From contig JAFSBT010000008.1 of NCBI GenBank assembly GCA_017437145.1, positions 273,893-337,892 of the forward strand: a DNA stretch of 64,000 nucleotides. The letters run 5' to 3'. The position numbers were made by a program, and so were the translations under genes. The stretch's first letter is position 1. Every line of letters begins with the position of its first letter. This stretch comes from Clostridia bacterium. GTDB taxonomy: Bacteria; Bacillota; Clostridia; TANB77; CAG-508. Under the pieces are notes generated by a model. The model saw only the letters and a list, made by a program, of their open reading frames with translations, did not search any database and was not told the origin of the DNA. Shown here piece after piece: positions 2,772 to 47,528 of the stretch.

Positions 2772-4772
2772 TTATTTATTTTCTTTATATACCTTTAACT
2801 GATTTATTAAATCCTGTGCTGTATATTTTTCATTATCCGTATATTTTATTGCTAGTAATGCTTCATTTTCTACTTTTCTTCCTTTTATACCATTACTTCT
2901 ATCATATTTAAATTGTTTTACTGCTGTAATTAAATCAGTTGCATCAATTTTACCATCTCCATTACTATCTCCAGTAATTACGATAGTATATACATATTCT
3001 TTTTCATCTTTTGCAAAAACAATTTTCATTCCTGTTTTCAATATATCATTTTCATTAACTTTACTATCTGCTAAATATATTTCTATTTTCTCTACATTTG
3101 ATTCAATATTACTTAAAAATTTTGCTTTAGTAGTATTTATAGGAACATGTAAAATATATCTATCCTTAACACCATACCCTTTTATCTTCATATAAAATTC
3201 CTCTTCTTCTACTTCAAATTCAACATTTTCAGTAAAGCCTTTTATACATAAATTTCTTACTTGTTTTGTAGTTGCACTTGCATTACTATTAGTACAAAAT
3301 TCTTTATATATATCTCCCCAGTAGCCTACATCCTTTGAATAAATATAACTTTCTCCCTGATTAATTTTTGCACTTTCCCAAAAAGATTGTTGTCCTTCTT
3401 TCTTACTTTCCTCAACGCCTGTATATTCAACTCCGTAATAAGTTACTCCGTCATAGTTATTTTTATATTTTACTGCTATTACAAACTTTTCTCCTGTTAA
3501 AATAACTTCATTATTTAATTTAATTGTATGATATCCTGCATCTAATACTTCAGTTTCCGCAACTTTAGTAAATTTATTAAAATCAAGTTCTCCACCAGTT
3601 CTATTAACGTAAATTTCATATGCAGAATCAACTAAATTTGCAACTGAAACCTCTGTTAATTTTTCAGGAGTGCTTGTTGTTCTTGTAAAGACATTTGCTC
3701 CATAAATGTCAGTTCCTTTTAACCCAAAAATTTCTCTAAGTCCTAACTCATCATGTTGATATAAATTATCATACTGTTTTTCCTTTACATTGTATACTCC
3801 ATAAACTGAGCTTTCAACGAATGTATCTTCATATGAAATATAAAATATTCCATCCTTTGAGAAATTTTCTCCCCATGAATTTAATACAATATAAGCTCCA
3901 TCATTTTGTGGTCTGTGTTTTTCATTAAAATTTTCTTTACTATAATTATCATCCCATCCAATAATAGTAATTTGATGGTCAGGATTTATTGTATTAATTC
4001 CTTCAAAATTATAATCATAATCACAATAATATGCTTCTGAATTAAAATAGTTTTCCTCATCACTAAAGTATTCTTCTCCTTGTGAATACATACATGATGT
4101 AACAGCTCCATATTCTTTTATATGCTCTTTAATTTCATTTCTTATTAAGTCAACTTGCTGTTTACTATAGTGACCACCATTATATTCAATATCTCCATTA
4201 TTATTTTTCCCTTTAATTATACTAGCTATTGAAATATAATCTCCTATGTATGTATCTATAATATTTCCAACTGTCGTTTTAGGTCCATATCCACCTGTAT
4301 AAAAGCTCAATGCTAGAGCTGGATTCCCTCCACCATTAATTTGTCTATTATATATTTTTGCAGAATCAGCTTCTGTTGCATTAATACTAAATTTATTATA
4401 TTCAATATCATTTTTTGTATTTTTTCCAAGAGTAGTTTCTATAATACTATTTGTACTATATATCCAACAAGTTTCACCTTCTTGTTTGTATATATTAATT
4501 TTCATATCGTCCTGTAAAGAGTATTTACTTGGTAAGTTCGTAGCTTTTAATTTATTAGATAAAAATACATTGTTTACACCATAGGTTAAAGTTTTATCAA
4601 ACCCTTTTTGATAATATGTTACAAAATTACCATTATTTGATAAAACAATCTTATCTGTATTAACATATATATCATTATAGTTAGTTTTAGCATAATTAAC
4701 AGAAATATTTAATATCAGTACTAAAAAAACTAATATTGAAATGCTTATTTTTAAAATTTTATTTTTTTGCAT
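2772..4772 (-). CDS. secreted papain-family (C1A) cysteine protease with C-terminal dockerin-like module
   Basis: 666 aa; signal peptide; catalytic motifs QEGETCWIYS (Gln/Cys), HQITIIGWDD (His), NSWGENFSKDGIFYISYE (Asn/Trp); C-terminal GDSNGDGKIDATDL calcium-loop typical of dockerin, about 60% identical to the C-terminus of the 2380-aa protein at 7293-14435. Confidence 0.8.
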   Translation of the reverse strand: MQKNKILKISISILVFLVLILNISVNYAKTNYNDIYVNTDKIVLSNNGNFVTYYQKGFDKTLTYGVNNVFLSNKLKATNLPSKYSLQDDMKINIYKQEGETCWIYSTNSIIETTLGKNTKNDIEYNKFSINATEADSAKIYNRQINGGGNPALALSFYTGGYGPKTTVGNIIDTYIGDYISIASIIKGKNNNGDIEYNGGHYSKQQVDLIRNEIKEHIKEYGAVTSCMYSQGEEYFSDEENYFNSEAYYCDYDYNFEGINTINPDHQITIIGWDDNYSKENFNEKHRPQNDGAYIVLNSWGENFSKDGIFYISYEDTFVESSVYGVYNVKEKQYDNLYQHDELGLREIFGLKGTDIYGANVFTRTTSTPEKLTEVSVANLVDSAYEIYVNRTGGELDFNKFTKVAETEVLDAGYHTIKLNNEVILTGEKFVIAVKYKNNYDGVTYYGVEYTGVEESKKEGQQSFWESAKINQGESYIYSKDVGYWGDIYKEFCTNSNASATTKQVRNLCIKGFTENVEFEVEEEEFYMKIKGYGVKDRYILHVPINTTKAKFLSNIESNVEKIEIYLADSKVNENDILKTGMKIVFAKDEKEYVYTIVITGDSNGDGKIDATDLITAVKQFKYDRSNGIKGRKVENEALLAIKYTDNEKYTAQDLINQLKVYKENK

Positions 4773-5037
4773 TTTTTCTCCCTCTTTATACTATTTTATC
4801 CTAATATAATTATATTTTTTTGTTTAATATTGTCAATGCATTTTTTTGACAACAAAAGTCTCTTAAGGCTGTATTTTTACGGATATTCGTCCTCTATCAT
4901 ATATTATTTTTTCATTACATTTATATTACATTTCCACTTTGTAACACAACTGTAATATAATCTTAATATTTTTGAAATATATTTTTTTTATAAGATATTG
5001 TATAATATAAACATACAAAAGATTTAAGGAGTTACGG

Positions 5038-6156
5038 ATGAGTGTTAATTCTGATTTAAAAAAAGCTGGAATCGACATTGTTCAGCAATTAAATGAAAAA
5101 GATGTTTCTGCTATTGCTAGTAATATTGCTAGCAAACTTTGTCTTGCATTTCCGGAACACAACCTTAAAAGAAACACTTTAATTTCTGCAATTTCTAATA
5201 TAAATATGTATATTGCAAATATGCCTGAAGATTATTCACAAGCTAAATATTTTTACAAAAATAACTCTATATATTTTAAAAGATATTCGTCACCAGAAGA
5301 AATGTCTAATGTGGCTGTACATGAATGTATCCACTTTATTCAGGAAATAACTGATGAAAATTACAATTTAGTAAGAATGGGATTGTATAAAGTAAATTCA
5401 GGTTTAGCAATAAATGAAGCTGCAGTTCAGTTAATGACATCTGAAGCTAACACATGTGAAATTTGCGAAGAAAAATATTATGGTATTAATTTGAAGACTT
5501 CTAGTCCTGATTATTATCCTTTACAATGCGCTATACTTAATCAAATGGCATATTTCACAGGGACTTATCCTCTATACCATAGTACATTAAATAGTAATGA
5601 TATATTTGAAAATACATTTACATTAAAATCAGGAAAAAAAATATATGATAAAATTTCAAAATATTTAGATACACTATTATATTTAGAAAATGATTTAAAT
5701 TATTATATACATGATTTAAGAAATACAGATAAAGTTAGACGTATGAAAACCTTAAACAATATTATCAGTCAAAGAAAAGAAGAAATACGTTCTACATTTT
5801 TTAAAGCACAAAATTTGATTATAAAAAGCTGCTTTGAAAATTCTTTTAAATCAATAAGAAATTTAGATGAAATTAAAGAATTTCAACAAGATTTATATAA
5901 ATTTAAAAATATCATGGGATATACAGAAAATTATACTTTTTATAATGATTTTTACTGTAATATAATGAATTCATTAGAAGATAAAAGAATTTATATTATA
6001 AAACATGGCGAAATTAACTTGTTTGATAAAGATTCAAAAGCACTCTCTTTAATTAATACTACGAAAGAATCCTATAGCTTTGCAAAGGTATTTATGATTA
6101 AATTAAAGAAATTATTTAGAGTTAATGTGAATGGAGAAGATATAAATTATTTATAG
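5038..6156 (+). CDS. hypothetical protein with HExxH motif (putative zinc metallopeptidase-like)
   Basis: 372 aa, no signal peptide, HECIHFIQE motif; no other recognisable family signature; RBS aaggag upstream; hairpin terminator at 6160-6192. Confidence 0.45.
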   Translation: MSVNSDLKKAGIDIVQQLNEKDVSAIASNIASKLCLAFPEHNLKRNTLISAISNINMYIANMPEDYSQAKYFYKNNSIYFKRYSSPEEMSNVAVHECIHFIQEITDENYNLVRMGLYKVNSGLAINEAAVQLMTSEANTCEICEEKYYGINLKTSSPDYYPLQCAILNQMAYFTGTYPLYHSTLNSNDIFENTFTLKSGKKIYDKISKYLDTLLYLENDLNYYIHDLRNTDKVRRMKTLNNIISQRKEEIRSTFFKAQNLIIKSCFENSFKSIRNLDEIKEFQQDLYKFKNIMGYTENYTFYNDFYCNIMNSLEDKRIYIIKHGEINLFDKDSKALSLINTTKESYSFAKVFMIKLKKLFRVNVNGEDINYL

Positions 6157-6159
6157 AAA

Positions 6160-6192
6160 AAATGCTAGTCCTTGACTAGCATTTTTTGTGTT
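6160..6192 (+). terminator. rho-independent terminator
   Basis: aaaaatgctagtccttgactagcatttttt stem-loop plus T-run after 5038-6156 gene. Confidence 0.7.
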
Positions 6193-6364
6193 TGGATTTT
6201 AGATTTTGGCATTTAGAAATATAGGGTAATGTCTACGATGGCATACTCTATACATCCAACTACCAACTACCAAATTCCAATTACCAAATGCATCGACTTA
6301 TAATTTATTTATTGAAATTAATAAAAAACCTACAGGATAAATCCTATAGGTTTTTTGTTTTTAT

Positions 6365-7255
6365 TTAGAACATTTTATATTTTTTGTAAGAAATTACTGC
6401 TACGGCAATTGCAAGCATTATTCCTGGTATTGTAATTATTTCTAATCCTGCTTTATCTATAACTTTGTTAGCTGTTGTATTATCTCCTCCTGTTGTTGAA
6501 CCAGAATTACCAGAGCCAGTTGATGATGCTTCTACAGTTATAGTAAAGCTATCTTCTTTACCTTCATAAACAGCTTTTACTGTATGTGTACCTTGTGTTA
6601 AAGATTGTCCATTTAATGAACTTACTTCTTTTCCATCCCAGTACCATTTACATAAACTTGTTACGTCTTTTGTTGATCCATCACTATATTTTGCTGTTAC
6701 TTTCATACTTGAGACATCTAGGTTTTCACCAACTTTTACAGTTGTTTTTGATGGTTTTGTTATTACTATTTCAGTTAATGTTGCTTCTGATTCACCAGAT
6801 GACTTTAAGCTTATTGTTTTAGATATACTTGCCATATCCTTTGTTGTTTTATCTAAGTCTGTTAATTCAATTCCTGATAATTTAATTGTTGCACTTTCAG
6901 CAGATACTCCTTCTTTTATTTGAACATCTAACGCTATTGTTTTAGTTCCTGATTTAATAGCATCGTCAAATGCTCCCATTAACATACCATCCATGATGAA
7001 GAAATCGCTAGATGATGATGATGCCACATTTATTGTTAAAATATCTGATGGATATTCTAGTTCTGCAACGAATCCATCGATTCCAGAACCTGCTGAAGTA
7101 ACATTTATGTTTACGTTGAATGTAATTTTGTCTCCAGGTTTTGCTTCTGTTGGGCAACTTCCTGTTACACTTGCCTCTATAGCTGCATTAGATTGTACTC
7201 CTATTAGTATTAAGATACACATCACTATACAGCTTACTATTGTTTTAATTTTCAT
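6365..7255 (-). CDS. membrane-anchored cohesin-domain protein (putative dockerin receptor / anchoring scaffold)
   Basis: 296 aa; signal peptide; N-terminal region GDKITFNVNINVTSAGSGIDGFVAELEYPSDILTINV matches cohesin beta-sandwich consensus; Ig-like middle domain; C-terminal TM anchor IITIPGIMLAIAVAVISYKKYK. Confidence 0.6.
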   Translation of the reverse strand: MKIKTIVSCIVMCILILIGVQSNAAIEASVTGSCPTEAKPGDKITFNVNINVTSAGSGIDGFVAELEYPSDILTINVASSSSSDFFIMDGMLMGAFDDAIKSGTKTIALDVQIKEGVSAESATIKLSGIELTDLDKTTKDMASISKTISLKSSGESEATLTEIVITKPSKTTVKVGENLDVSSMKVTAKYSDGSTKDVTSLCKWYWDGKEVSSLNGQSLTQGTHTVKAVYEGKEDSFTITVEASSTGSGNSGSTTGGDNTTANKVIDKAGLEIITIPGIMLAIAVAVISYKKYKMF

Positions 7256-7292
7256 TTTGTTTCCTCCTTTTAATTTAAACTTTAAGTTTTAG

Positions 7293-10200
7293 CTATTTGT
7301 TTCTCCATTCTTTATACATTTTTACTTCGTTTATTAAATCTGAAGCTGTATATTCTTCCTTATCTGTAAATTTAACTGCTAATAATTTAGCGCCTTCTAG
7401 TTTTGTACCTTTTGATCCATTTGATCTTGTGTATTTAAATTGTTTTACTGTGTCTATTAAGTCATTAGCTGTAACTAATCCGTCTCCTGTACAATCTCCT
7501 GTTACTACTACAATATATGTAATAGTTTCTGTTTCATTTTTTACTATTATTCTAGTATTATCCGTTGATGCATATTTTGTATAATCACTGATTACTTCTT
7601 TATCAGCATCTTCTACTGTAGCTGTATAACCTTCCGCTAATTTATCTAGTATAGATTGTATTGCAACTTTTGGATTTATTCCCACTAAGTAATTTACACC
7701 ATTAATTGTTTTCATTCCAAATCCTGCATCATCTGTAAATCCTTTTGCTTGTTGTACAACTGTAATTGTACAAGTTGCTGTAAAGTTTCCATCTTCTGTT
7801 GTTACTGTAATTACTGTTGTTCCTTCTGCTATAGCTGTTACATTTCCTGCTGCATCTACTGTTGCTACGTTTTCATTACTTGATTTCCATATTAATGTTT
7901 TATTTGCTGCATCTTCTGGTTCAACTGTAGCAATGATTTGAGATGTTTTTCCTATTGATAAAGTCATTTCATTTGCACTTAATTTTACTCCTGTAACTTT
8001 TCCTGTTCCAGTTGTTACTGTAACCTTACATGTAGCTGTTTTATTTCCATCCTCTGTTGTTACTGTAATTGTTGCTGTTCCATCTCCTATTCCAGTTACT
8101 TTAGCAGAACCATCTTCTGTTGCTTCTACTTTAGCAACATTTTCATTATCTGATGTCCATGTAAGCTTTTTATTTGTTGCATTTTCTGGATTAATTGTTG
8201 CTACTAATATTATATCAGAATTTTTCATTATGTCAACAGATTCTTTATCTAAAGTTACACTTTCTACGGCTACAAAATCAGTAACTGTTACTTGACATGT
8301 AGCTGTTACTTTTCCATCTAGTGAGCTTGCTGTAATTGTTGCTGATCCAGCTCCAACTGCAATTACTTTTCCGTTAGTATTTACTGTTGCAACTTTTTCA
8401 TCACTTGATGTCCAAATTAATTCTTTATCTGTTGCATTATCTGGTGTTACTGTTGCATTAATTTCAGTACTGTCTCCTGAATATAAATCTAATGTTGTAA
8501 TATCTAACTCTATTTTTTCTACTGGTATTGCTTTAGTTACTACCACATTACATGTTGCTGTAAATCCACCTTCTGCTGATGTAGCTGTAATTGTTGTTTC
8601 ACCTGGCATAATAGCTGTTAATTTTCCTTTTTCATCAATTGTTGTAACTGTTGCATCACTTGATACAAATGTTACATCTTGATTTATAGCATTACTTGGA
8701 GTGAAAATAACTTTTAATGTTTCATTTTTTCCTTCTACTATTTCTAATGCTGTTTTTTCAAATGCTATACTTTCCAATGTTACATTTGACTCTTCAACAT
8801 ACACTTTACATGTTGCTGATTTTCCACCATTAATTGTTGTTACTGTAATTGTTGTTTCTCCTGCTCCTACTGCTGTAATTAAACCATTTACTACTGTTGC
8901 TACTTTTTCATTTGATGATGCCCAAACTACAGATTGTAATGAACTTGCCAATTCTTCTGGTTTAACTGTTTCATTTAATTCTGCAGTTTGTCCTTTTACT
9001 AATCTTAATAATGTTTTATCTAATTCAATTCCTGTTACTTCTGTAGAATCAATTGCTTTAACTGAAATTGTTAATGTAGCTGTTTTTCCTCCATCTGCTG
9101 TTACTGTTACTACTGCATCTCCAACACCTACTGCTTTTACTGTTCCATTTTCATCTACTGATATAACTGATGTGTTGCTTGAACTCCAGTTAGCATCTTT
9201 AACTGATGCATTATCTGGTGCAATTGTTATTAAATTAGCTAATTCTGCTTTACCACCTAAAGTTAATTCCTTAGGAGCTTCTTCTTTAAATGTTACTGAT
9301 TCAACTTCTATTTTTTCATTTACGATTATTTGACATGTTGCACTTACTTTTGCATCTTTTATTGATGTTGCTGTAATTGTAGCTGTTCCTTTTGAAATAC
9401 CTTTCATGATTCCTTTTGAATCAACTGTTACAATTGATGTATTACTTGATTCCCATTTAATTGATTCTGGTGTTGCATCTGATGGAACTATTGTTGCTAC
9501 TAAAGCTTTTTTACCATCAACATCAACATTTGCTGTTTCATTTAGTATTATAGATGTTGCAAATTTAACTTTTGTTGCTACTTTTAATTCATTTTCTGCA
9601 ATATCTTTAATTGTAACTTCACTTAAATCTTCTTTAACTTCTTTAACTAATGTGTCATTATCTTTATTTGTTTTTGTTAATGTCCATCCTTCTACTGGGC
9701 TTAGTGCTTCATTAGCTATAATAATTATTTTGATTCCATTTTCTGTTTGTTCATATTTAACTTCAGCTTTTGGTGCTGTGTTATCTACAACTAATCCTGC
9801 TTTTGTATATTCTTGTTCTGTTGGATTATTTGATGTATCTTTAAATATACCTTTTGGTAATACTAATTCAATTTCGCCTTCTTTACTTCCTGCTGTTACC
9901 GTTGCAACAAAACTTGTTTTTCCGATTTGATTTAATGTTACTGTACTTCCTGTGCTTCCTTCACCTTTTAACATAGCTGTATATCCTTGTGCATTTGTAA
10001 CTGCCTCTGAAGTAATAATTTTGAATGTAGCTTTATTTCCTGTTTTAATACTTGCTGGTGTTGCAGCTTCAATTTTAACTGTTGGTGCTATATTGTCTAT
10101 AATTCCTGAAACTTTTACAACTCCATTATATTTTGCAATATTTCCTGCTTTATCTTTTACATATATGTAGAAATCTCCATTTGATTTAACTGTATCTGTT

Positions 10201-13200
10201 AATGTTGTTGAAGTTGCTGTTTTCCAATCTTCTGTTATTAATTCTACATTTTCATTTGCACTTATTACAAATTTATCTTCTTTACTTTCTGTTGTAATTA
10301 CAATAGTTGCTGATTTTTTATCTTCACTTAGTAATGCTTCGCTAACACTTGTTATTACTGGAGCTGTGTTATCAATTGTTAATAAAAATGTTGGTATTGT
10401 CATATCATATGCTTCTGAGCACTTATTTCCTGCTTCATCAATGAACATTCCTTCAGGAATATATAATTGAACTCTACCATCTCCAAGAGCTTCTGTTACT
10501 TTTATTCCCCAAGTTTTTCCATCTTCTGATTTGGCTTCTGTCGTTAATTTCGCAGAAGCTTCCCCAAATCCATCTAAAGCAGCAAATCTAGCTTCTATTC
10601 CTTCTTGTTTTATAACTTTATCGTCAGAAGTTATTGTATAATTTGCAACTCCATCTTTGTTTATACAGTTATTATCTATACTTTCAATTGTAATTTTTGG
10701 AGCAATATTGTCAAAGCTTAATCCGGCAACTTCTTGTTTTACTGAACTATTTCCTGCTTCATCTGTGAATAATCCTTGAGGTAAGTTTAATTTAACTGGT
10801 CCATTTCCAACTCCACCTTTTACAGTGATTGTCCATGTTTTTCCATCAACTTCTGGTGCTTTTACCTCAACTATTGTACCTTTTATTCCTTCACCTGTTA
10901 ATGTAATTTGTGTTACTTTTTCTTGAACTAAATTTAACGCTTCTGATGTTTTGAATGTATATACTGCAGTTCCTTCGCTGTTTACTGTTGTTTTATCTAA
11001 TGCTGGAGCTGGTAATTCTGGATTTGTATTATCAACTCTTACTTTTGTATTAGTATAATCTTCTACTAAAACATTTCCAGCTTTATCTTTAAACATTTCT
11101 TTTGGAATTTTTAATACTACTTGGCTATTTGCTGTTCCACCTGTTAAAGTAATTGTCCAAATTTTTCCACTTCCTGTTATTTCACCTAATGTTCCTAATT
11201 TATCATCTTTTTCAAATTTATCATTTGTTATACTTGCTTTAACATCCTTATTTAACACAACATCTTCATTTGCTGTTATTGTATATGTTACTTTTCCATT
11301 TTCTTTTACTGCAGGTACAGATGCTGTAATTGTTAATGTTGGTGCTGTGTTATCAAATTCATATTCTCCTGATACTTTAACTCCGTCTTTATTTTCATTT
11401 CCTTGAACATCTTTTAATGTAGCAATTTTAACTTTTACAAAATATGTTCCTGTTAAATTACTTCCATCTACTATGAAAGAAGCAACTTTATCTCCAGCTT
11501 TATAGCTTAATTTAGCTGTTGTATATTCAGTTGGTTCCTCTTCAGCTGTTCTAACAAATGCATATCCAATGTTTGCTCCTGCTGCTAAACCTTTAAATGC
11601 ATCTGTTAATTTTATTTCAACTTTATTTCCATCTTTTTTACCAAACTCAACTCTTGGTGCTATAGCATCAACTTGAATTTTATTTTCTATATATGCTGTA
11701 TTACTTATATTGCCATATGCATCTTTAGCATGTATATAATAAGTTGCATTATTTTCATAAACATATGTAAATTCATATGTAGCTGGTTTTCCATCTATAG
11801 TTATCCATTTTGTATTTTCATCTGCTTTTTCATTTGTATCTATAACATATCCAGCAAGTCCTATTCCCACATCTGTTAATGAATATTTTACTGTTTCAGC
11901 ATATACTTGTCCATTACTAATTTTAATATCACTATTAACTACATATGATAAAGGTTGAGGTACTGGAGCTATATTATCAATCATTTTATTATCTATTACT
12001 ATCTCTTTTGCATCTGAAATGTTTCCAGCTTTATCTTTTACTGATAAATACCATGTTCCTGCGTTTTCAATTGTCGTTTCAATAGTTGCTTTTGTACCAC
12101 TTAATGTTTTCCATCCTGTTGTTACTTTAGATACATCTTTAGTCAATGAAATTATATAGCTATTTAATCCACTTTCTCCTACTTCTTCAACACTTACTTT
12201 AATTTTAGCAACTTTTCCGCCTTCGATACTTTCAATTTCTCCTATTACTGGTTTACTTGTATCAACTTCTGTTATTATTTGTGTATATACACCTATATTC
12301 CCCATTTTGTCCATTATATAAGCATATATTGTTCCATTTACTTTTATATCTTCTTTTATTGTATCTGATGTTATTAATTTCCAATTCTCATCTTTTAGTT
12401 TTGTTTGATCAGCTTCTGTTGTTATTATATATTTATATGCACCACTTGCATCATCTTTTATATTTGATAATGTAATTGTCATATAATATTTTCCAGCTGG
12501 TCTTTCTTTTCCTATAGTTGCTGTTGGTGGTGTTACATCAACCATTATATTTGCATTAGGATTTTTTTGTTTATAATCATTTATTGCAATATTTGTACCA
12601 TCATAACAAATTGTTGCTGTACAATTTTTAAATGCATCTGTTCCTATAGTTTCTATCGGAGTACCTTTTGGTACTATAATAGTTTTCATTCCTGTACAAT
12701 CATAAAAAGCTTTTTCTCCAATTATTTTTAATGATGTTGGTAAAACCAATTCTTTTAAAGCTATACATCCAGAAAATGCCTCTTTTTGAATTTCAGTTAC
12801 TGAATTTGGCATTGTAACTGCTGTTAATTTTGTATTTCCTTTAAAAGCACCTTCTCCAATTATTCTAACTGGTAGTCCATATATTTTATTTAGAAGGGTA
12901 ATTTGTGTGATATTTCCTTTGTTATCTTTAAAGCTATTTATTGTAGCGTATCCATTTTCTCCTTCAGTTAATGTATATATTATATATGCTGGAGATTGTG
13001 CAATTATTGGATTATCTTTTGTGCAATATACTATTAAATTTTTATTGCATGGTATATTTGAAGAATCAAATATAGTTGTTCCAACTGTTGTTAATCCTTG
13101 TGGAACTACTGCAACAGTTAAATTAGAGCATCCTAAAAATGCATTATTTCCTATACTTGTAACTGTTTTAGGTATTTCTACACTTTTTAAAGCAGTTTTA

Positions 13201-14435
13201 TAAAATGCTTGAGCACCTATTGAAGTTAATTTGCTTGGCATATTAACTGTTTCTAATTTTGTACAATTATAAAATACATTAGTACTTAATGATGTTAACT
13301 CATTTGATAAAACAACTTTATTTAAAGAAGTACAATCTCTAAAAGCAGCATTTCCTATTGATGTTACATTACTTAAATTTGCTTCTACTAATGAAGAATA
13401 ACCAAAAGCTAATTCTCCTATATTTTTTACACTTGTAGGTAAATTTAAACTTGAAAGTTTTGTTTTATAAAAAGCATATTCCTCTATTGTTGTTACCTTC
13501 TCGCCTATTAAAACTTCATTTAAATTTGTACAAGCTCTAAACATAGAAGCTGGTATTACTGTAATATTAGATAATTTAGGAAATTTCTCTAATGAAGTTC
13601 CAGCAAATGCCCATTTCCCAATTTTTGTTACACTTGCTTCATTTTCAAAACTAACTGTTTTTAATCCGTTAAAACAATAAAAAGCATGTGAATCAATATT
13701 TGATACTGATTTTCCTATTGTAACTTTTGCATCATTTGTAACGTTTCTCGCAAATGCATATGTTGCTATTGTACTTACAGAAGCTGGCATAGTAAAAGTA
13801 GTTGTACTTTTTGCTAATGGAAATTTTAATAATGTAGTTTTTGCTTTATTATATAAAACTCCATCTTGACTTGAAAATGCTGTATTATCACTATCTACCT
13901 CTATTTTTGTTAATGCAGTACAAGGTTCAAATGATAAAGCACTCATATTTGTTACATATTTACCTATTTTAATTCCTGTAATACCTGTAATTTTTGGTGA
14001 TACTTCTCCTGTTTTTTCATCTGCAGTATAGTCAACTAATCCGTTATTTTTATCAGCATTAAATCCAAATTGAGTTACTTTATAAACGTATTCATTCCAG
14101 TTAGTAAATAAATTTTTTGGAATTCTTATTTTATCTGGTATAGTAACTGTTCCTTTTAAAGTTGAAGCATTTACAAATCTAAAAGAAACTTCTCCTGCAC
14201 CATCAAGTAAGCTATCTTCTTTTAAAATAGTAGCTTTCCACTTAATGCCATTAGTTTCTCCTACATAAACTTTGCCTACTTCGTCATTCCACCAATCGGG
14301 ATTATCTGCATCAAAAACATCTTGATCAATATCCCATACAACTTCTGCTCTGGCAGTTCCTCCTGATATTAATAAGAAAACACAGGCAAGTATTCCTATT
14401 AATAACGCTTTAAAAATTGCACTCCTCTTTAGCAT
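7293..14435 (-). CDS. giant surface protein: signal peptide, BspA-type leucine-rich repeats, about 9 Big_2 Ig-like domains, C-terminal dockerin-like module
   Basis: 2380 aa single ORF; repeated IGxxAFxxCxxLxxIxIPxSVxxIG LRR units; repeated ~85-aa units ...IxWxSSNxxVATVDxxGxVTAxxxGxxTITATxxDGxxxATCxVxV; C-terminus TGDCTGDGLVTANDLIDTVKQFKY... shares module with protease at 2772-4772. Confidence 0.85.
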   Translation of the reverse strand: MLKRSAIFKALLIGILACVFLLISGGTARAEVVWDIDQDVFDADNPDWWNDEVGKVYVGETNGIKWKATILKEDSLLDGAGEVSFRFVNASTLKGTVTIPDKIRIPKNLFTNWNEYVYKVTQFGFNADKNNGLVDYTADEKTGEVSPKITGITGIKIGKYVTNMSALSFEPCTALTKIEVDSDNTAFSSQDGVLYNKAKTTLLKFPLAKSTTTFTMPASVSTIATYAFARNVTNDAKVTIGKSVSNIDSHAFYCFNGLKTVSFENEASVTKIGKWAFAGTSLEKFPKLSNITVIPASMFRACTNLNEVLIGEKVTTIEEYAFYKTKLSSLNLPTSVKNIGELAFGYSSLVEANLSNVTSIGNAAFRDCTSLNKVVLSNELTSLSTNVFYNCTKLETVNMPSKLTSIGAQAFYKTALKSVEIPKTVTSIGNNAFLGCSNLTVAVVPQGLTTVGTTIFDSSNIPCNKNLIVYCTKDNPIIAQSPAYIIYTLTEGENGYATINSFKDNKGNITQITLLNKIYGLPVRIIGEGAFKGNTKLTAVTMPNSVTEIQKEAFSGCIALKELVLPTSLKIIGEKAFYDCTGMKTIIVPKGTPIETIGTDAFKNCTATICYDGTNIAINDYKQKNPNANIMVDVTPPTATIGKERPAGKYYMTITLSNIKDDASGAYKYIITTEADQTKLKDENWKLITSDTIKEDIKVNGTIYAYIMDKMGNIGVYTQIITEVDTSKPVIGEIESIEGGKVAKIKVSVEEVGESGLNSYIISLTKDVSKVTTGWKTLSGTKATIETTIENAGTWYLSVKDKAGNISDAKEIVIDNKMIDNIAPVPQPLSYVVNSDIKISNGQVYAETVKYSLTDVGIGLAGYVIDTNEKADENTKWITIDGKPATYEFTYVYENNATYYIHAKDAYGNISNTAYIENKIQVDAIAPRVEFGKKDGNKVEIKLTDAFKGLAAGANIGYAFVRTAEEEPTEYTTAKLSYKAGDKVASFIVDGSNLTGTYFVKVKIATLKDVQGNENKDGVKVSGEYEFDNTAPTLTITASVPAVKENGKVTYTITANEDVVLNKDVKASITNDKFEKDDKLGTLGEITGSGKIWTITLTGGTANSQVVLKIPKEMFKDKAGNVLVEDYTNTKVRVDNTNPELPAPALDKTTVNSEGTAVYTFKTSEALNLVQEKVTQITLTGEGIKGTIVEVKAPEVDGKTWTITVKGGVGNGPVKLNLPQGLFTDEAGNSSVKQEVAGLSFDNIAPKITIESIDNNCINKDGVANYTITSDDKVIKQEGIEARFAALDGFGEASAKLTTEAKSEDGKTWGIKVTEALGDGRVQLYIPEGMFIDEAGNKCSEAYDMTIPTFLLTIDNTAPVITSVSEALLSEDKKSATIVITTESKEDKFVISANENVELITEDWKTATSTTLTDTVKSNGDFYIYVKDKAGNIAKYNGVVKVSGIIDNIAPTVKIEAATPASIKTGNKATFKIITSEAVTNAQGYTAMLKGEGSTGSTVTLNQIGKTSFVATVTAGSKEGEIELVLPKGIFKDTSNNPTEQEYTKAGLVVDNTAPKAEVKYEQTENGIKIIIIANEALSPVEGWTLTKTNKDNDTLVKEVKEDLSEVTIKDIAENELKVATKVKFATSIILNETANVDVDGKKALVATIVPSDATPESIKWESSNTSIVTVDSKGIMKGISKGTATITATSIKDAKVSATCQIIVNEKIEVESVTFKEEAPKELTLGGKAELANLITIAPDNASVKDANWSSSNTSVISVDENGTVKAVGVGDAVVTVTADGGKTATLTISVKAIDSTEVTGIELDKTLLRLVKGQTAELNETVKPEELASSLQSVVWASSNEKVATVVNGLITAVGAGETTITVTTINGGKSATCKVYVEESNVTLESIAFEKTALEIVEGKNETLKVIFTPSNAINQDVTFVSSDATVTTIDEKGKLTAIMPGETTITATSAEGGFTATCNVVVTKAIPVEKIELDITTLDLYSGDSTEINATVTPDNATDKELIWTSSDEKVATVNTNGKVIAVGAGSATITASSLDGKVTATCQVTVTDFVAVESVTLDKESVDIMKNSDIILVATINPENATNKKLTWTSDNENVAKVEATEDGSAKVTGIGDGTATITVTTEDGNKTATCKVTVTTGTGKVTGVKLSANEMTLSIGKTSQIIATVEPEDAANKTLIWKSSNENVATVDAAGNVTAIAEGTTVITVTTEDGNFTATCTITVVQQAKGFTDDAGFGMKTINGVNYLVGINPKVAIQSILDKLAEGYTATVEDADKEVISDYTKYASTDNTRIIVKNETETITYIVVVTGDCTGDGLVTANDLIDTVKQFKYTRSNGSKGTKLEGAKLLAVKFTDKEEYTASDLINEVKMYKEWRNK

Positions 14436-18778: not shown

Positions 18779-20528
18779 TTATCGTCCATCCTCATCACTT
18801 TGAGTACTACCACTACGTTTCCTTTGTTTTTTATCCCATTCCTCATCTATCTCTTCTTGTGAAATCATTCGCCACTCTTTAACATTAAACGCTCCTCCAG
18901 GAAGTAATCTAATATCTCCTATAACTGGCAAACTTACAAAAGATAGATTCATAAATGCATCTATTCCATCATTTACTTGTGCATATTCTTTTAATTTTTC
19001 CATCTTATTAACAACTTGTTGAGGATTTTCATCTGTCATAAGATTTGCTATTGGCAATGCCAAACTTGCTTTTACTTCACCATTTTCAACATATATTTTT
19101 CCACCTTGCATTTTAGCAATTTCATTTGCTGCTTTTACTATATCTGAATCATTTGTTCCTGCAAGTATCATATAGTGTGAGTCATGTGCAACAGTTGTAC
19201 CAATAGCTCCACGTTTTAATCCCATCCCCTTTAAATAAGCAATTCCTATGTGCATTGTTCCTTTGTGTGATTCTATAACTACTATTTTAATAATATCATC
19301 CTTCAAATTATAGTTGTCCGTAATGCCTTCATCTGTTGTTATTATTTCCCTAGGAACTAAACCTATTATTTTTTTAGGTATTCCTATGCATTCTATATCT
19401 TCCGTAGTTAGTGGTCGCATATTAATTGAATTTTTAACTCTTGACTCAACCTCTTCATCTACATGATTATCTTCCCAATTTAATAATAACTCATGTGTGA
19501 TTTGGATTCCATTTTTATAAACACTGTCTATTCCTACTCCTTCTAAGTCATCTATAACAAGCAAATCACCGATGCACCCCTTCTTCAATTTTTCCTAAAT
19601 CTTCTAATTGAAAATATTGTGCTGCATTGTATGTAGCAGTAATATATGCATCTTCAGGCTGTACACCTAGTTTAATTGCTTTTCGTATTATTGCATCAAT
19701 ATGTCCATCACTTTTTAACTCCTCTGGATGTTTATCATCTGTTGCAAACATTATATTATCTCTATAATTAGGATTATTAATTAACTCTACAAGTGCTTCT
19801 AAATTTTTCGCTGCAGTTCCTTCTCTTATCATTACATAAAAAATTTGATTCAATTCTCTTGCAATATCAATTTTTTCTTTAGCTTCCTCAATTGTACTAC
19901 ACTCATGATCTGATTGTATTCCTGCTTTTATATATTTTATCAGGTCATCTCCTGTTAATCCTGGTGCATGACCATCTACTCTTTTACCTCTTTTATAGGC
20001 CTCTGCAATTTTATCTAAAACCTCTTTATCATCAAATAATACTCCTGGATAATTCATCATTTCTGCAAGTCCTAAAATTCTTTCATCATCTAATTCAAAA
20101 CATATAGCTGTATCTGAACTGTTCAATGTTGCTGCAGATTCATCAAATTCGCTTGCTGGTACACATGACGGAATCATGAAATATACTGATATAGGTAAGT
20201 TTCTAGTTTTTTGAAGCATGTATTTAATTCCATCTATTCCACAAACATTTGCTATTTCATGTGGATCAGTAATAACTGCTGTTGTTCCATGAATGCTTGC
20301 TATTTTTGCAAAATTTTCTGGTGAAATTACAGAACTTTCTAAATGTATATGTCCATCTATAAAGCCAGGAACTATATATTTTCCTGTTATATCTTTTTCT
20401 TGTTTACCATTATAGTTTTTATTAATTCCTATGATTTTTCCATCTTGTATAGCAATATCTCCTTGTATAAAAGTTCTACTTCTTACATCTAGATATTTTC
20501 CATTTTTTAAAACTAAATCCGCTTCCAT
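18779..20528 (-). pseudogene. ade: adenine deaminase, interrupted by +1 frameshift near 19569-19580 (possible sequencing error)
   Basis: N-terminal ORF 19566-20528 (320 aa, MEADLVLKNGKYLD...FIDGHIHLESS metal-binding motif) and C-terminal ORF 18779-19588 (269 aa) overlap by 23 nt in different frames; together 589 aa = full Ade length. Deleting C of in-frame CGG (plus-strand ccg 19569-19571) gives continuous ...KIEEGVHGDLLVIDDLE.... Confidence 0.8.
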
Positions 20529-20975: not shown

Positions 20976-21473
20976 TTAAAAATGTGCTTGAACGACTGTA
21001 AATCGATGTTTTTCTGTGCTGTTTCTGGAATATGTTTTACATTTAAGAACTAATTCTAATTTGTTTTTTTTCCTTATAATTTTCAAAACTTGAGCATCGG
21101 TCTCAGCAAAGTTGGGATCATTTCCACTCATAAAGTGAATAGGCCCTTTCCATCTAGGCCTTCCGAGTCCACGAACATTATTACTATAATAGATTCCAGA
21201 AGCATATATGGTTTTCCCGCTATTTAACTTTTCTATTGCCTCATTAACAGAAAAAATCATATCAAGTTTTTGATTACTATTAGCATTAGTTCCGGGTTCA
21301 AGAAAAAGATTTAAACCTAATAGATTTTTTTCACCGATTTCTGAAAATGAAATCGTTTCTTTTCTTTTCATAGTTCCATCTGACACAGCTTTTTGAATTT
21401 CCTCGAAATAATCTTCCGGGAGAACGTCTGAAAGAATGAGTTCCCCTTGACTGTCTTCGGTTTTATACCACAC
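20976..21473 (-). CDS. hypothetical protein (in tRNA-Pro-adjacent higher-GC islet)
   Basis: 165-aa ORF, GC visibly above local background; no recognisable motif. Confidence 0.4.
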   Translation of the reverse strand: MWYKTEDSQGELILSDVLPEDYFEEIQKAVSDGTMKRKETISFSEIGEKNLLGLNLFLEPGTNANSNQKLDMIFSVNEAIEKLNSGKTIYASGIYYSNNVRGLGRPRWKGPIHFMSGNDPNFAETDAQVLKIIRKKNKLELVLKCKTYSRNSTEKHRFTVVQAHF

Positions 21474-21901: not shown

Positions 21902-22543
21902 TTACTCATCAAGAATCATTATTACTCCTGTGAGTTCGAGGATTCCTATTGCAGCCATTTCTCCTTCTGTAAGCTCAACCCCCATGTCCAATTTTTGGCG
22001 GATTTCCATAGCAGCCTGGACACATCCACTATAAAATAATTTTTCCGAACTCTTTCCCGTTTCTTCGAGAACAACTTCATCCATTATTGCTTTGTAAGGA
22101 TACCATTCTAAACAAGCATCCATTGCGTCTACCAACATCCTGCAGTCGCCTTTAGCAATTGGAATATATAAAAGTCCCATAGTGGGTCTCTCATCGTCCG
22201 AAAATTCACACCCTTTTTCTCCCTGCAATGCACATGGTCTACGAATAATAGAGTTATTCACTCTTCCCGCATCTACTTCGCGCGCATTAATGATAGGAAT
22301 TGGTATAAATTCATTTCCATCGGCAGCACAAAAAAATGTAATTGAATACTTCCCAGTATCCAACATTTTTCTAACACCGTCTACTGACATTTCCGGAACA
22401 TCACATGTCATGAGTCCACATCCGCCTCTTTGACAGCATTTACCCCCACATTTTTCACAAATGTTGTGATTTAGGTAAGGGTTTCGCGGGAAATCCCGCA
22501 TTTTTGAAGTAATGTAAGCCTTTTTATCATTGGGTCCCATCAT
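21902..22543 (-). CDS. cysteine-cluster protein (YkgJ/UPF0153-like CxxCxxxCC putative Fe-S or Zn binding)
   Basis: 213 aa; CEKCGGKCCQRGGCGLMTC cluster; GC about 40% versus about 26% background; strong consensus promoter TTGAAA-17-TATAAT on minus strand at 22558-22590; terminator hairpin 21868-21900. Confidence 0.4.
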   Translation of the reverse strand: MMGPNDKKAYITSKMRDFPRNPYLNHNICEKCGGKCCQRGGCGLMTCDVPEMSVDGVRKMLDTGKYSITFFCAADGNEFIPIPIINAREVDAGRVNNSIIRRPCALQGEKGCEFSDDERPTMGLLYIPIAKGDCRMLVDAMDACLEWYPYKAIMDEVVLEETGKSSEKLFYSGCVQAAMEIRQKLDMGVELTEGEMAAIGILELTGVIMILDE

Positions 22544-23428: not shown

Positions 23429-24742
23429 TTACATGTTAGAATACTTATCGTACAACAGTTTTAATTCTTTAATTGTGGAATCAATCTCTTCAGGTTTTAA
23501 TTCTTTTCCGTCGAACTTATTTATTTCGTTTTTCGGTATATTCTTCAACAAATACGAATCTAATCCATTCACTCGTTCTTTAATATATACCGTTCCATTA
23601 GCATAATTGTAACGTATATACCAACCATCATCATATACATAAGAATCTTCAAGATTTAATATTACACTACTTACATTTTCTTCTGATAATTCGATAACTG
23701 TAATATCATAGTTAAATGCACTTGCATCCGATGTATCATAATTATGCTTTCCATAATTACAACCGAATGCCTCTTCTAATTCAACATTGGATATTCCGGT
23801 AAATCTTTTTCCATCTTTTAAATATATAGGATATACCAGACTAATTTCATCCTCGTAGTGATTAAAATATGGCATCATAGCGTAGACAGATTCTTCATCT
23901 TCTACTAACACCTCATCCACATCAGTATCCACTTTGATGAATTTTATCCAAAAATTGCTTGGATTAGCATTGTAATACATATAATATAAATCTTTTTTAT
24001 CATCTAAAATATAGTGATAATTAAAATCTATGATTGTTCCACCAGGGAAAGATACTGTTTCACCCACTTGTTTTCCAAGTTTGTAAAACATGAAGTCATT
24101 TCCGCTTCTTACAAGAGACATTTCTTCGTTATAACAGAGTACATTGTCATACTCAACATTTGTTGCGCCGTATAAATCCATGTTACTGTTATTTAAGAAA
24201 TCATAATCCATCGATGTCTCATTTACTTCTATGCTCTTACTTATTCTTCTTTCACCAGAGCTGCCACCATATATGAATATACTATCTCCTGATTTATACA
24301 TAGAGATATTTTCCATTACACTTGTTGGTGAAAAACCAGCTCTCTCTGAGATTGTAACATTTATTCCAGTTACATATTCGGAAATTTCAATATATGTCTC
24401 ATCGCCATAATACAAGATTTTCAAATCTTTATCTGCGTCGAGCATTCTTTGAATATCTTCTTGAACCAAATCAGGAAAATTTTCTTCGTATGGCTGCTTG
24501 GTAATATCTGCTGGTGCTTCATCCAAAACTCTTAACAGCTGACTGTATGGCCGCTTAATGTAGTTATCGGTAAGTTCCGGATTTGGATTGTAATATGCAT
24601 GTATGAACCACGATATCATAATTGCAAGTATTAAAAATACTGTAACGATAAAAGTGATACATTTAATGACCCGATGCCTGTCAAAAAAATCATAAATACC
24701 GACAAAGACTTCCTTGACTCTATTGTTTTCTTTGCTTTCCAT
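23429..24742 (-). CDS. membrane-anchored hypothetical protein
   Basis: 437 aa, single N-terminal TM helix (ITFIVTVFLILAIMISWFI), large extracytoplasmic domain without recognisable motifs; minus-strand promoter TTGCAA-17-TATAAT near 24855-24890. Confidence 0.5.
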   Translation of the reverse strand: MESKENNRVKEVFVGIYDFFDRHRVIKCITFIVTVFLILAIMISWFIHAYYNPNPELTDNYIKRPYSQLLRVLDEAPADITKQPYEENFPDLVQEDIQRMLDADKDLKILYYGDETYIEISEYVTGINVTISERAGFSPTSVMENISMYKSGDSIFIYGGSSGERRISKSIEVNETSMDYDFLNNSNMDLYGATNVEYDNVLCYNEEMSLVRSGNDFMFYKLGKQVGETVSFPGGTIIDFNYHYILDDKKDLYYMYYNANPSNFWIKFIKVDTDVDEVLVEDEESVYAMMPYFNHYEDEISLVYPIYLKDGKRFTGISNVELEEAFGCNYGKHNYDTSDASAFNYDITVIELSEENVSSVILNLEDSYVYDDGWYIRYNYANGTVYIKERVNGLDSYLLKNIPKNEINKFDGKELKPEEIDSTIKELKLLYDKYSNM

Positions 24743-42995: not shown

Positions 42996-44372
42996 TTACA
43001 TGATTTTTTCTAAGATTTTTGAAAAATTCATAGAATTTGATGCCTTGAGAAGAATTATATCTTCTTCTCTCATTATTTCTTTAATTTTTTCACTTGCCTC
43101 ATCAATAGAATTACATTCAAAAACATTTAACATTCCTTTTTCTTTTGATATTTTAGAAATGCTTTTTGCATATTCTCCAACAGTTATTAGTAAATCTATC
43201 TTATTACGTATAACTTCTTCTCCAACTTTCTCATGAAGCTCTTGTGTAAATTCTCCTAATTCTAGCATATTTCCTAGAATAGCAATTTTTCTACCACCTT
43301 TTGTATTTTTCAAAACTTCTAAAGCAGCTTTTACTGAATCAAAACTTGCATTATAGCTATCATTTATAACCGTTATATTTTCTTTTATTTTTTTTATATC
43401 CATTCTTTTGGCCGTTAATTTAAATTCAGCAATACCTTTTATAATTTTTTCTTCTGGAATATTAAATATCTTACCTGCAACAAAAGCACACAAACTATTA
43501 TAAACAAAATGTTCTCCCGATACAGGTACTGTAATTTCATATTTGTTTTCTTTTGATAACAATTCATACTTGCTACCATTATCTATTATTTCAATGTTAT
43601 CTGCTTTATACATACTATCACTATAAATTCCATATGTATTTACATTTGATAATTTTTCTGTATCATTCCACGAATTTAACAAATCATTATCATTGTTAAT
43701 AATAATGCTTCCATTTTTATCTAATCCTTCAAGCATTTCTAATTTTGCTTTTAATATATTTTCTCTTGAACCTAAATTTCCTATATGTGATGTTCCAATA
43801 TTAGTAAAAATTGCAACATTTGGTTTAGCAATCTTTGTAAGAGTTCTTATTTCACCGAAATGATTCATCCCCATTTCTACTACAGCAATATCATGGTCCT
43901 TTAATTTTAATAATGTTAAAGGAAGCCCTATGTGATTATTATAATTTCCTTCTGTTTTTAATACTTTAAATTGTTGAGATAGTACACTCGCTACTAAATC
44001 TTTTGTACTTGTTTTACCTACACTTCCTGTAATTGCAACTACTGGAATATTATTTTTTTCTCTTTTGTAATTTGCTAATTGTTGTATAGCTTTAATAGTA
44101 TCTTCAACTTGTATAATGCATTTTTCTGAATATTTTTCAATTATTTCTTGGTTAGGAGTTTTATCAACAATAGCTCCTATAGCTCCATTTTGTAATGCCA
44201 CTTCAACAAAGTCATTTCCATCTGCATTTTCTCCTTTTATTGCTAAATACATATCTCCTACTTGTATATTCTTTGTATTTCTCTCGAAATTTTCTATTTC
44301 ATTTTCATTGTTATTAGTAAGTAATTTGCCATTACATACTTCTAAAATTGTTTTTACTGTAATTTTTATCAT
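42996..44372 (-). CDS. murF: UDP-N-acetylmuramoyl-tripeptide--D-alanyl-D-alanine ligase
   Basis: 458 aa Mur ligase; ATP-binding VVAITGSVGKTSTKD. Confidence 0.9.
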   Translation of the reverse strand: MIKITVKTILEVCNGKLLTNNNENEIENFERNTKNIQVGDMYLAIKGENADGNDFVEVALQNGAIGAIVDKTPNQEIIEKYSEKCIIQVEDTIKAIQQLANYKREKNNIPVVAITGSVGKTSTKDLVASVLSQQFKVLKTEGNYNNHIGLPLTLLKLKDHDIAVVEMGMNHFGEIRTLTKIAKPNVAIFTNIGTSHIGNLGSRENILKAKLEMLEGLDKNGSIIINNDNDLLNSWNDTEKLSNVNTYGIYSDSMYKADNIEIIDNGSKYELLSKENKYEITVPVSGEHFVYNSLCAFVAGKIFNIPEEKIIKGIAEFKLTAKRMDIKKIKENITVINDSYNASFDSVKAALEVLKNTKGGRKIAILGNMLELGEFTQELHEKVGEEVIRNKIDLLITVGEYAKSISKISKEKGMLNVFECNSIDEASEKIKEIMREEDIILLKASNSMNFSKILEKIM

Positions 44373-44487: not shown

Positions 44488-44519
44488 TGTTACGGAAATA
44501 ATGAAAGGAAGTGCTTTTT

Positions 44520-45605: not shown

Positions 45606-46075
45606 TGAAAAAAGTATTATTTATTTCTAGTACAGGTGGACATTTAAATGAATTAATGCAACTGGAACCAATTTTTAATAAATACGAATACTTTATAATT
45701 ACGGAAAAGGATAAGTCTACTATTGACCTAAAAAATAAGTACGACAAAAAAATTTCATACTTATTTTATGGTACTAGAAAAAAGTTTTTTAGCTATCCTT
45801 TTATTTTTATTGCAAACTGTTTTAAAAGTTTATTTTTATATGTAAAACTACGACCAAAATATATTGTAACTACTGGAACTCATACGGCAGTTCCAATTTG
45901 TTATATTGGAAAATTATTTGGCTCAAGAATAATTTTTATTGAAAGTTTTGCAAATAAAAATACAAAAACTTTATCTGGTAAAATGATTTACCCTATTTCT
46001 AATTTATTTATAGTTCAATGGGAAGAAATGTTAAAACTATATCCAAAAGCAGTTTTAGGAGGTTCAATTTATTAA
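45605..46075 (+). CDS. Alg14-like glycosyltransferase accessory subunit (PssD/Cps14F family)
   Basis: 156 aa; MKKVLFISSTGGHLNELMQL, typical Alg14-like membrane-anchor/enhancer subunit; stop overlaps next start (taATG). Confidence 0.7.
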   Translation: MKKVLFISSTGGHLNELMQLEPIFNKYEYFIITEKDKSTIDLKNKYDKKISYLFYGTRKKFFSYPFIFIANCFKSLFLYVKLRPKYIVTTGTHTAVPICYIGKLFGSRIIFIESFANKNTKTLSGKMIYPISNLFIVQWEEMLKLYPKAVLGGSIY

Positions 46076-46554: not shown

Positions 46555-46567
46555 GAAAGGATAAAAA

Positions 46568-47527: not shown

Positions 47528-47528
47528 A

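Follow-up and report, generated by a model that had tools for sequence, protein, structure and literature searches.

How can a protease and a giant adhesin-like protein be held on a cell by cohesin and dockerin modules outside any cellulosome? This question is raised by a locus at positions 2772-14435 of a 64,000-nucleotide (nt) stretch of a low-GC (about 27%) chromosome of spore-forming Clostridia, which was analysed as a whole and is called here the window. An earlier reading made from its letters only (hereafter the sequence-only reading) had delimited four open reading frames (ORFs) in this locus, with coordinates that exactly match our ORF list and translations, and had proposed a mini-cellulosome-style anchoring of the protease and of the giant protein. 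Our analysis supports cohesin-dockerin anchoring but not the cellulosome: the system cannot be considered as one since the window has a single cohesin and the cargoes are not carbohydrate-active (no glycoside hydrolase domain was found in either of them with Pfam). In our opinion, the locus probably encodes a minimal non-cellulosomal cohesin-dockerin surface-attachment system of an uncultured low-GC Clostridia bacterium of the gut. The module identities, the predicted folds, the operon arrangement and the conservation of the gene pair were computed here. The ORFs and their modules are as follows (aa, amino acids; Ig, immunoglobulin).

2772-4772, minus strand: Cwp84-like papain-family cysteine protease, 666 aa (PDB, Pfam, catalytic motifs)
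2775-2996, minus strand: divergent dockerin of the protease, aa 593-666, with loops DSNGDGKIDATD and KYTDNEKYTAQD
2997-3200, minus strand: X module of the protease, aa 525-592
5038-6156, plus strand: HExxH protein (H95ECIH99), 372 aa, without signal peptide, outside the system
6365-7255, minus strand: putative single-cohesin anchoring protein ('mini-scaffoldin'), 296 aa (ORF, structural model)
6368-6529, minus strand: tail of the 296-aa protein, with an S/T/G-rich linker, KVIDKAGLE, a hydrophobic helix and KKYKMF (translation, homologue alignment)
6530-6778, minus strand: Big_3 Ig-like stalk domain of the 296-aa protein, aa 160-242
6800-7183, minus strand: cohesin domain of the 296-aa protein, aa 25-152 (Foldseek, Pfam matches within the family, family profile against PDB)
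7293-14435, minus strand: giant secreted adhesin-like protein, 2380 aa (ORF, Pfam)
7296-7523, minus strand: divergent dockerin of the giant protein, aa 2305-2380, with loop 1 DCTGDGLVTAND and loop 2 KFTDKEEYTASD
7524-7727, minus strand: X module of the giant protein, aa 2237-2304

The module shared by the two putative cargo proteins

Aligned by tblastn within the window (E 1e-27), the protease and the giant 2380-aa protein are 58% identical in their C-terminal 81 aa. The sequence-only reading had described there a shared module of about 70 aa with the consensus TGDxxGDGxxxAxDLIxxVKQFKYxRSNG...YTAxDLIN. This description is accurate but understates the extent of the similarity, which starts about 70 aa further upstream, in a beta-rich X module that is also common to both proteins. 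The X module of the giant protein aligns with the corresponding region of the protease and with many dockerin proteins. The X module of the two proteins has no Pfam match and no significant PDB fold match. Such a module (about 70 aa, …TGM…Y-x-I-V-V-x-GD) also immediately precedes the dockerin in many unrelated proteins (P0027, P0030, P0052, P0056, P0076-78 and those of loci L004 and L049). No third copy of the shared module was found in the window by tblastn; a weak match at 43947-44156, inside a Mur ligase gene, was rejected as due to chance.

The sequence-only reading had called for a structural model of the dockerin. AlphaFold2 (AF2) folds residues 515-666 of the protease with a predicted local distance difference test score (pLDDT) of 94 and a predicted template modelling score of 0.86, as a beta X module packed on the dockerin, which is made of three helices. 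Strands extend to residue 85 of the model and pLDDT exceeds 90 in all blocks except the first 10 residues. The structure that Foldseek retrieves with the highest probability is a type I dockerin from Clostridium thermocellum (2ccl_B; probability 0.84, template modelling (TM) score 0.64, root-mean-square deviation 3.2). A search of PDB with a single module sequence gives nothing significant and a family profile is required, the lowest E-values obtained with this profile being those of dockerins. On the protease, Pfam Dockerin_1 recognizes only the first repeat, with 15.5 bits for a cut-off of 22.9. Furthermore, the alignment by hhalign of eight modules of the lineage with 11 Pfam-verified dockerins covers 62 columns end to end (98.4% probability, E 5e-15), these dockerins having been retrieved with the module's own profile but being classed independently by Pfam.

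An exhaustive HMMER search of 1.84 billion representative proteins with the module profile retrieved the full module in only four clusters at E<=1e-10, namely the giant protein, its orthologue, the protease and an 85-aa fragment. Among these representatives, the module is thus borne by two architectures only, the protease and the protein made of leucine-rich repeats (LRR) and Ig-like domains. The remaining 58 matches mainly cover the first loop with its helix. Dockerin_1 was found in all the next-best matches checked (8/8), seven of them above threshold (E 1e-9 to 1e-67) and one, P0032, just below it at 18.4 bits. P0032 (L012, 10001-11419) combines an S8 subtilase, a Big_3 domain, an X module and a dockerin, and the gene has apparently been split off from its N-terminal part (9334-10053). 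The dockerin of P0032 stands between the canonical type and that of the window: it aligns over the whole module and has a KQY… helix 1, its canonical second loop being intact. In addition, a word-indexed search with the module returned a single protein, and a pattern-based genome scan, which is not a full census, returned the orthologous locus L008 and three loci matching the N-terminal part (first loop) only.

The two loops of the module differ. Loop 1 has 12 residues and is canonical, with Asp at positions 1, 5 and 12 in 8/8 sequences. Loop 2, K-[FY]-[TS]-x-x-x-x-Y-[TS]-[AP]-x-D, keeps 12 residues and Asp12, with Lys at ligand position 1 in 8/8 sequences, a variable position 5 and no conserved Asp or Asn at positions 3 and 5. 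The canonical calcium loop that had been proposed therefore exists in the first repeat, but the second is degenerate, and the module does not have the Asp or Asn at positions 1, 3, 5, 9 and 12 of both repeats that characterize a dockerin with two calcium loops. Since a Lys invariably occupies ligand position 1, loop 2 probably binds no calcium, and the module is predicted to bind at most one calcium, through loop 1. Helix 1 is followed by an insertion of 7-8 mostly basic residues ([NKED]G-x-KG-x-x). Helix 1 (DLIxxVKQ[FY]KY) and helix 3 (DLIxxVKxYK) are still alike, and these motifs are common to both cargoes. Judged from their sequences, the two proteins share a divergent dockerin, the homology of which with verified dockerins covers its whole length.

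The cohesin-bearing protein, its probable partners and its putative anchor

The 296-aa protein successively includes a signal-peptide-like N-terminus, a cohesin, a Big_3 domain, an S/T/G linker, a C-terminal helix and a KKYKMF end. Its AF2 model has a mean pLDDT of 76.6, with two beta domains mostly between 80 and 94 (by blocks, mostly 76-94 for the cohesin, aa 31-150, and mostly 79-94 for Big_3). The sequence-only reading had predicted a cohesin-like and an Ig-like domain, and had named as its refutation a putative cohesin region folding as an unrelated Ig domain. Both domains were recovered. The Ig-like one is a Big_3 domain above the Pfam threshold (PF07523, E 3.4e-6, 27.6 bits for a cut-off of 21.2), and the best fold matches of the other are cohesins. 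The top PDB structures retrieved by Foldseek with the cohesin model are all non-cellulosomal cohesins: the GH84C cohesin-FN3 of Clostridium perfringens (2w1n, E 4.3e-9), GH33 and other cohesins of the same species (2vo8, 6e-7; 2jh2, 2.5e-6; 2o4e, 2e-5) and that of Archaeoglobus fulgidus (2xdh, 1e-6). Moreover, Pfam Cohesin (PF00963) matches 5 of the 11 aligned members of the family (best E 1e-10). As for the dockerin, a single-sequence search of PDB gives nothing significant and a family profile is required; with it, cohesins make up 8 of the 11 matches (2xdh at 1.7e-4, 5lxv_A at 9.6e-4). The modelled fold and the family profile thus identify the first domain of the 296-aa protein as a genuine cohesin. 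No second cohesin is detectable in the window.

The gene encoding this protein lies downstream of that of the giant protein, in the same orientation and 37 nt after its stop codon. Two signals delimit the transcription units:

6323-6356, minus strand: terminator-like hairpin (15-bp stem followed by a T-rich stretch), at the 3' end of the giant-cohesin unit
4809-4836, minus strand: sigma-70-like promoter match (12/12 consensus) upstream of the protease gene, a pattern match only

The hairpin is the sole one of this type on this strand and none separates the giant and cohesin genes; promoter-like sites are not enriched across the region overall. This computed arrangement suggests that the cohesin gene is co-transcribed with the giant gene and that the protease gene would be a separate transcription unit. 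In the window, the HExxH gene is bordered on one side by the cohesin and giant genes, which separate it from the uracil-DNA glycosylase (UDG) gene, and on the other side by the protease gene. The locus is syntenic in L001 (UDG, giant, cohesin, HExxH and protease; cohesin protein 68% identical), in L003 (59% identical) and in L008, a GTDB representative ('Clostridiales bacterium SIG349'). The module is kept on all the cargo proteins readable in L001 and L003, and the protease gene accompanies the pair in both related genomes with readable flanks (L001 and L008).

The adjacent pair formed by a large dockerin protein and a cohesin-anchor protein recurs in three distant lineages, with cohesin identities down to 27%. 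In L004/L005, the gene of a 1231-aa LRR protein with a two-repeat dockerin precedes by 18 nt that of a protein combining a cohesin, Big_3 and LPKTG, which shares 32% identity with the window protein; in L004, Dockerin_1 scores 24.0 bits on the C-terminal fragment, above the cut-off, and 18.9 on the full-length protein. In L049/L053, a 1650-aa LRR/Big_2 protein with Dockerin_1 above threshold is encoded directly upstream of a protein carrying a cohesin, two Big_3 domains and LPATG (27-28% identical). In L024, the cohesin-anchor gene comes first and is followed 4 nt later by that of a Big_2-rich protein with an N-terminal Dockerin_1 above threshold. Net charges range from -8 (the window cohesin) to -14 for cohesins and from +1 to +7 for dockerins. 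The operon structure, the synteny, the recurrent pair and this charge complementarity lead us to predict that the window cohesin binds the two dockerins. Taken as a whole and with the limits given here, the sequence-only reading is supported, all the computational tests able to refute it having come out in its favour.

We infer binding, calcium dependence, stoichiometry and surface location as follows. The 296-aa protein would be secreted, kept on the cell by its C-terminal tail, and would present one acidic cohesin on its Big_3 stalk. The giant protein and the protease, each ending in an X-dockerin dyad, would dock non-covalently onto this cohesin, the former being produced from the same operon as the cohesin and the latter from its own transcription unit. 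The two would compete, since each cohesin would hold one cargo. Their dockerin would be a lineage-specific variant in which loop 1 should bind calcium and loop 2 probably none.

How the tail holds the protein is less certain. KVIDKAGLE, the helix and KKYKMF align residue by residue with the LPKTG, hydrophobic stretch and KKYKGI of homologues P0014 and P0017. The pentapeptide at this position is LPKTG in P0014/P0017, LPATG in L049, IPHAG in L024, IDKAG in the window and HAAAG in P0008/P0012. The window protein thus has the hydrophobic stretch and the KKYK tail of an LPXTG sorting signal, with IDKAG in place of its pentapeptide. The aligned tails are located at 6368-6460 (minus strand) in the window, 4932-5036 in L004, about 7230-7338 in L049 and about 8690-8807 in L024. 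Homologue P0020, only 23% identical overall, retains ADKVIDKAGVE and ISYKKYK; between such 23%-identical proteins, the conservation of the tail exceeds that of the cohesin. There is no sortase gene within the window; one is found about 6 kb from the HExxH gene in contigs of the Clostridium sp. CAG:452 type. A metagenome scan with the C-terminal tail gave no matches. The mode of anchoring is uncertain because the window has IDKAG where homologues have LPKTG or LPATG: the tail would be either a membrane anchor (a decayed sortase signal) or a non-canonical sorting signal. Hence, the hydrophobic helix and KKYK tail agree with the C-terminal transmembrane anchor of the sequence-only reading, but their alignment with LPXTG sorting signals makes a plain transmembrane anchor uncertain.

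Several observations weigh against a cohesin-dockerin system in this locus. Scored alone, the cohesin and the dockerin of the window proteins both fail the Pfam thresholds, and the 296-aa protein itself has no Pfam Cohesin match at E<=0.1. The E-value given by hhalign is not fully independent, because of the way in which the dockerins were found. Adjacency is not universal: no cohesin gene is located near that of the dockerin protein P0032 in L012, and the upstream neighbour of the cohesin homologue P0017 has no dockerin. Finally, as the cohesin is carried only by a transmembrane helix, a linker of 25 aa and a single Ig domain, it may not clear a thick Gram-positive wall; owing to this short reach, a true display would depend on an unverified sorting step or on a thin envelope. 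The resemblance of the two C-termini could even be due to chance, to composition or to an annotation artefact, as an AT-rich genome and Lys-rich tails could inflate scores. This explanation has practically no chance of being right and is refuted by the tblastn match (E 1e-27, with no comparable third match in 64 kb), by the conservation of the module in the readable orthologues (window, L001 and L003), by the distribution obtained with HMMER and by the confident AF2 model (pLDDT 94).

It is more conceivable, while still unlikely, that the modules are homologous to cohesins and dockerins without being partners. The tails would then bind a wall polymer, another protein whose gene lies elsewhere in the genome, or calcium alone, and the 296-aa protein, small and located at the surface or in the membrane, would be independent of them. 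The many dockerin-like modules without a nearby cohesin, such as that of P0032, and the neighbour of P0017 without dockerin would fit this explanation. However, it is at odds with the operon arrangement and its 37-nt gap, with the recurrence of the adjacent pair in several lineages despite cohesin identities as low as 27%, with the very narrow distribution that the module and the cohesin protein share, and with the occurrence of one cohesin in the window for only two module-bearing architectures. We regard as quite improbable that the giant protein is the only partner of the cohesin, the two forming an adhesin and anchor cassette, and that the dockerin of the protease serves otherwise, for instance by docking to the giant protein, or to a cohesin encoded elsewhere in the genome, to process the adhesin. 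The conserved unit of the distant lineages (L004, L049 and L024) is indeed a two-gene pair, in the window the HExxH core gene stands between the pair and the protease gene, which a promoter-like site of its own precedes, and the two dockerins are just 58% identical; against this, the protease gene travels with the pair in L001 and L008, the helix-1 and helix-3 motifs are common to both cargoes and the window has no second detectable cohesin. Attachment of both cargoes to the single cohesin thus remains the reading that we prefer. A bolder version of it, possible but rather doubtful, is that the module represents an undescribed dockerin subtype (full-length, binding one calcium, with Lys replacing the second Ca2+) and that the tail is a new LPXTG-derived sorting signal read by a variant sortase. 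If so, a one-calcium dockerin with a basic 7-8-aa insertion could give a single binding orientation or a partly calcium-independent binding.

Putative cargo proteins and gene surroundings

The protease includes a signal peptide, a pro-region, a catalytic domain, a lectin-like domain (aa 337-514), the X module and the dockerin. Its assignment to C1A cysteine proteases in the sequence-only reading is borne out by the papain-type motifs ETC102W, DH266Q and N298SWG, which provide the catalytic Cys102, His266 and Asn298, and by its homology with Cwp84 of Clostridioides difficile (PDB 4d59/4ci7; E 2e-22 over residues 211-493, the His region being aligned). The Cwp84 lectin-like domain PF18560 is detected with an E-value of 2.6e-21. 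Peptidase_C1 is marginal (E 5.6e-4 in the orthologue P0024, 20.5 bits for a cut-off of 20.7). No CWB2 repeat is detected in the protease with Pfam, its C-terminus being made of the X module and the dockerin.

The giant protein carries a signal peptide, BspA-type LRR (about aa 60-625), repeats of about 105 aa (aa 630-1655), Big_2 domains (about aa 1656-2228), the X module and the dockerin. The LRR and Big_2 composition announced by the sequence-only reading is found with strong Pfam matches (LRR_5, E 2e-74 in four stretches; Big_2, E 4e-86 in seven stretches). The intervening region (9471-12548, minus strand) contains about 1000 residues of these 105-aa repeats, with the DN[IT]AP motif occurring eight times at a spacing of 92-113 aa. 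They have no Pfam match and are presumably Ig-like stalk domains of no described family.

The HExxH gene is embedded in the locus, as had been noted, but is not part of the system. No match to its product was found in Pfam, NCBIfam or PDB. More than 2000 hypothetical proteins are homologous to it and form with it a large family, with about 59% identity in the Clostridium sp. CAG:452 group. In contigs of the CAG:452 type, the gene adjoins UDG-CoaE and the cohesin and dockerin genes are absent. As it adjoins UDG-CoaE in relatives without the system, the gene is a resident core gene and synteny rules it out as a component. Its product looks like an uncharacterised putative cytoplasmic metalloprotein encoded by a conserved core gene of the clade.

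The locus is flanked by housekeeping genes. The flanking genes include MscS, an HD protein, UDG, CoaE, PHO4, FtsA/FtsZ, SpoIIGA/sigma-E, Ddl, a MurF-like gene and a wall-glycan cluster. An adenine deaminase-like gene (18779-20528) is split into two overlapping ORFs of the minus strand, Amidohydro_1 (19566-20528) and Adenine_deam_C (18779-19588), owing to a frameshift, pseudogenization or an assembly error. The SpoIIGA (Peptidase_U4) gene (32666-33587, minus strand), directly upstream of a sigma-70-family gene (31996-32694), is likewise split into two ORFs that overlap, one for profile positions 1-114 and the other for 116-281; in this sporulation gene, the split would result from either a frameshift or an assembly error. 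Four ORFs of the minus strand encoding 165-437 aa (20976-21473, 21902-22543, 23429-24742 and 29440-30108) have no Pfam match at E<=0.01. An IS200-like Y1 transposase ORF (37829-38299, minus strand; PF01797, E 6e-7) is flanked by an RF-1 gene and an SbcC/SbcD-like pair. Finally, a large cluster for the biosynthesis of cell-envelope glycans extends from 44511 to 64000. It encodes a GT4 initiating transferase, an Alg14/Alg13-like pair, several GT2, an O-antigen-ligase-like protein, a fucose pyrophosphorylase/GHMP kinase fusion, a DUF2142 protein and an ABC-2 exporter. The region between 46 and 50 kb has a very low GC content (19-20%) and is encoded on the opposite strand.

Comparison with known systems

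The window module resembles type I dockerins (PF00404; for instance, Xyn10B of C. thermocellum, 2ccl_B) in its length of about 70 aa, its predicted three-helix arrangement and the loop 1 D-x-N/T-x-D-G-x-[IV]-x-x-x-D. The likeness of its helices 1 and 3 is also that of dockerins with internal symmetry. It differs from them by the Lys at position 1 of loop 2 (8/8), by 7-8 extra residues between helix 1 and helix 2, and by a score below the Pfam cut-off. For protein engineering, the decayed calcium loop and the altered LPXTG position could provide a compact cohesin-dockerin pair that is orthogonal.

The best structural matches of the cohesin, those of C. perfringens GH84 and GH33 (2w1n, 2vo8, 2jh2 and 2o4e), have E-values of 4e-9 to 2e-5 and TM-scores of 0.53-0.69 (normalised by target length), with a sequence identity to the window cohesin of only 12-15%. 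The C. perfringens pairs have non-cellulolytic, host-associated functions and, as in the 296-aa protein, the cohesin of 2w1n is followed by an Ig-like (FN3) domain. However, the cohesins and dockerins of C. perfringens are located on secreted glycoside hydrolases that assemble together, and not on a dedicated anchored scaffoldin.

For the protease, the reference is Cwp84, which is held by cell-wall-binding CWB2 repeats. The window protease has the X-dockerin dyad in their place. The core made of the protease and lectin-like domains is homologous in both, and both would be surface-associated by a C-terminal attachment module, as described for Cwp84 (PMC4089489) and as predicted for the window protease. 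Cwp84 has been described as an S-layer protein with a lectin-like domain (PMC4089489), whereas no S-layer substrate is evident in the window.

The closest known analogue is ScaE of Ruminococcus flavefaciens, together with the dockerin proteins of groups 4 and 2, the likeness drawn here being one of architecture: in both cases, a single-cohesin cell anchor would directly receive dockerin cargoes. ScaE is anchored by LPXTG and binds dockerins carried by LRR proteins and peptidases, and strain FD-1 has dockerins on 28 LRR modules and on 16 peptidase modules (PMC2930009). Nevertheless, ScaE is part of a large cellulosome, in which dockerin proteins number more than 200, and its LPXTG is canonical, whereas the window has one cohesin, two cargoes and IDKAG. 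Unlike that of ScaE, the window system includes no carbohydrate-active enzyme and stands alone outside any cellulosome. The group 2 dockerins of R. flavefaciens are truncations of about 40 aa that have one calcium repeat and nevertheless bind ScaE (PMC12270676). In contrast to them, the window module is of full length (about 74 aa), with a decayed loop 2 and an insertion of 7-8 aa, and would be a different route to a one-repeat dockerin. Systems of this kind are probably under-counted among the Firmicutes of the gut, as both modules fall below the Pfam thresholds and as the cassette occurs in several metagenomic lineages that are unrelated. Hence, the locus can be viewed as a new example of a known mechanism, in the class of non-cellulosomal cohesin-dockerin systems, and as a minimal case, with one socket and two plugs, of cohesin-dockerin attachment for a use other than the digestion of plant fibres.

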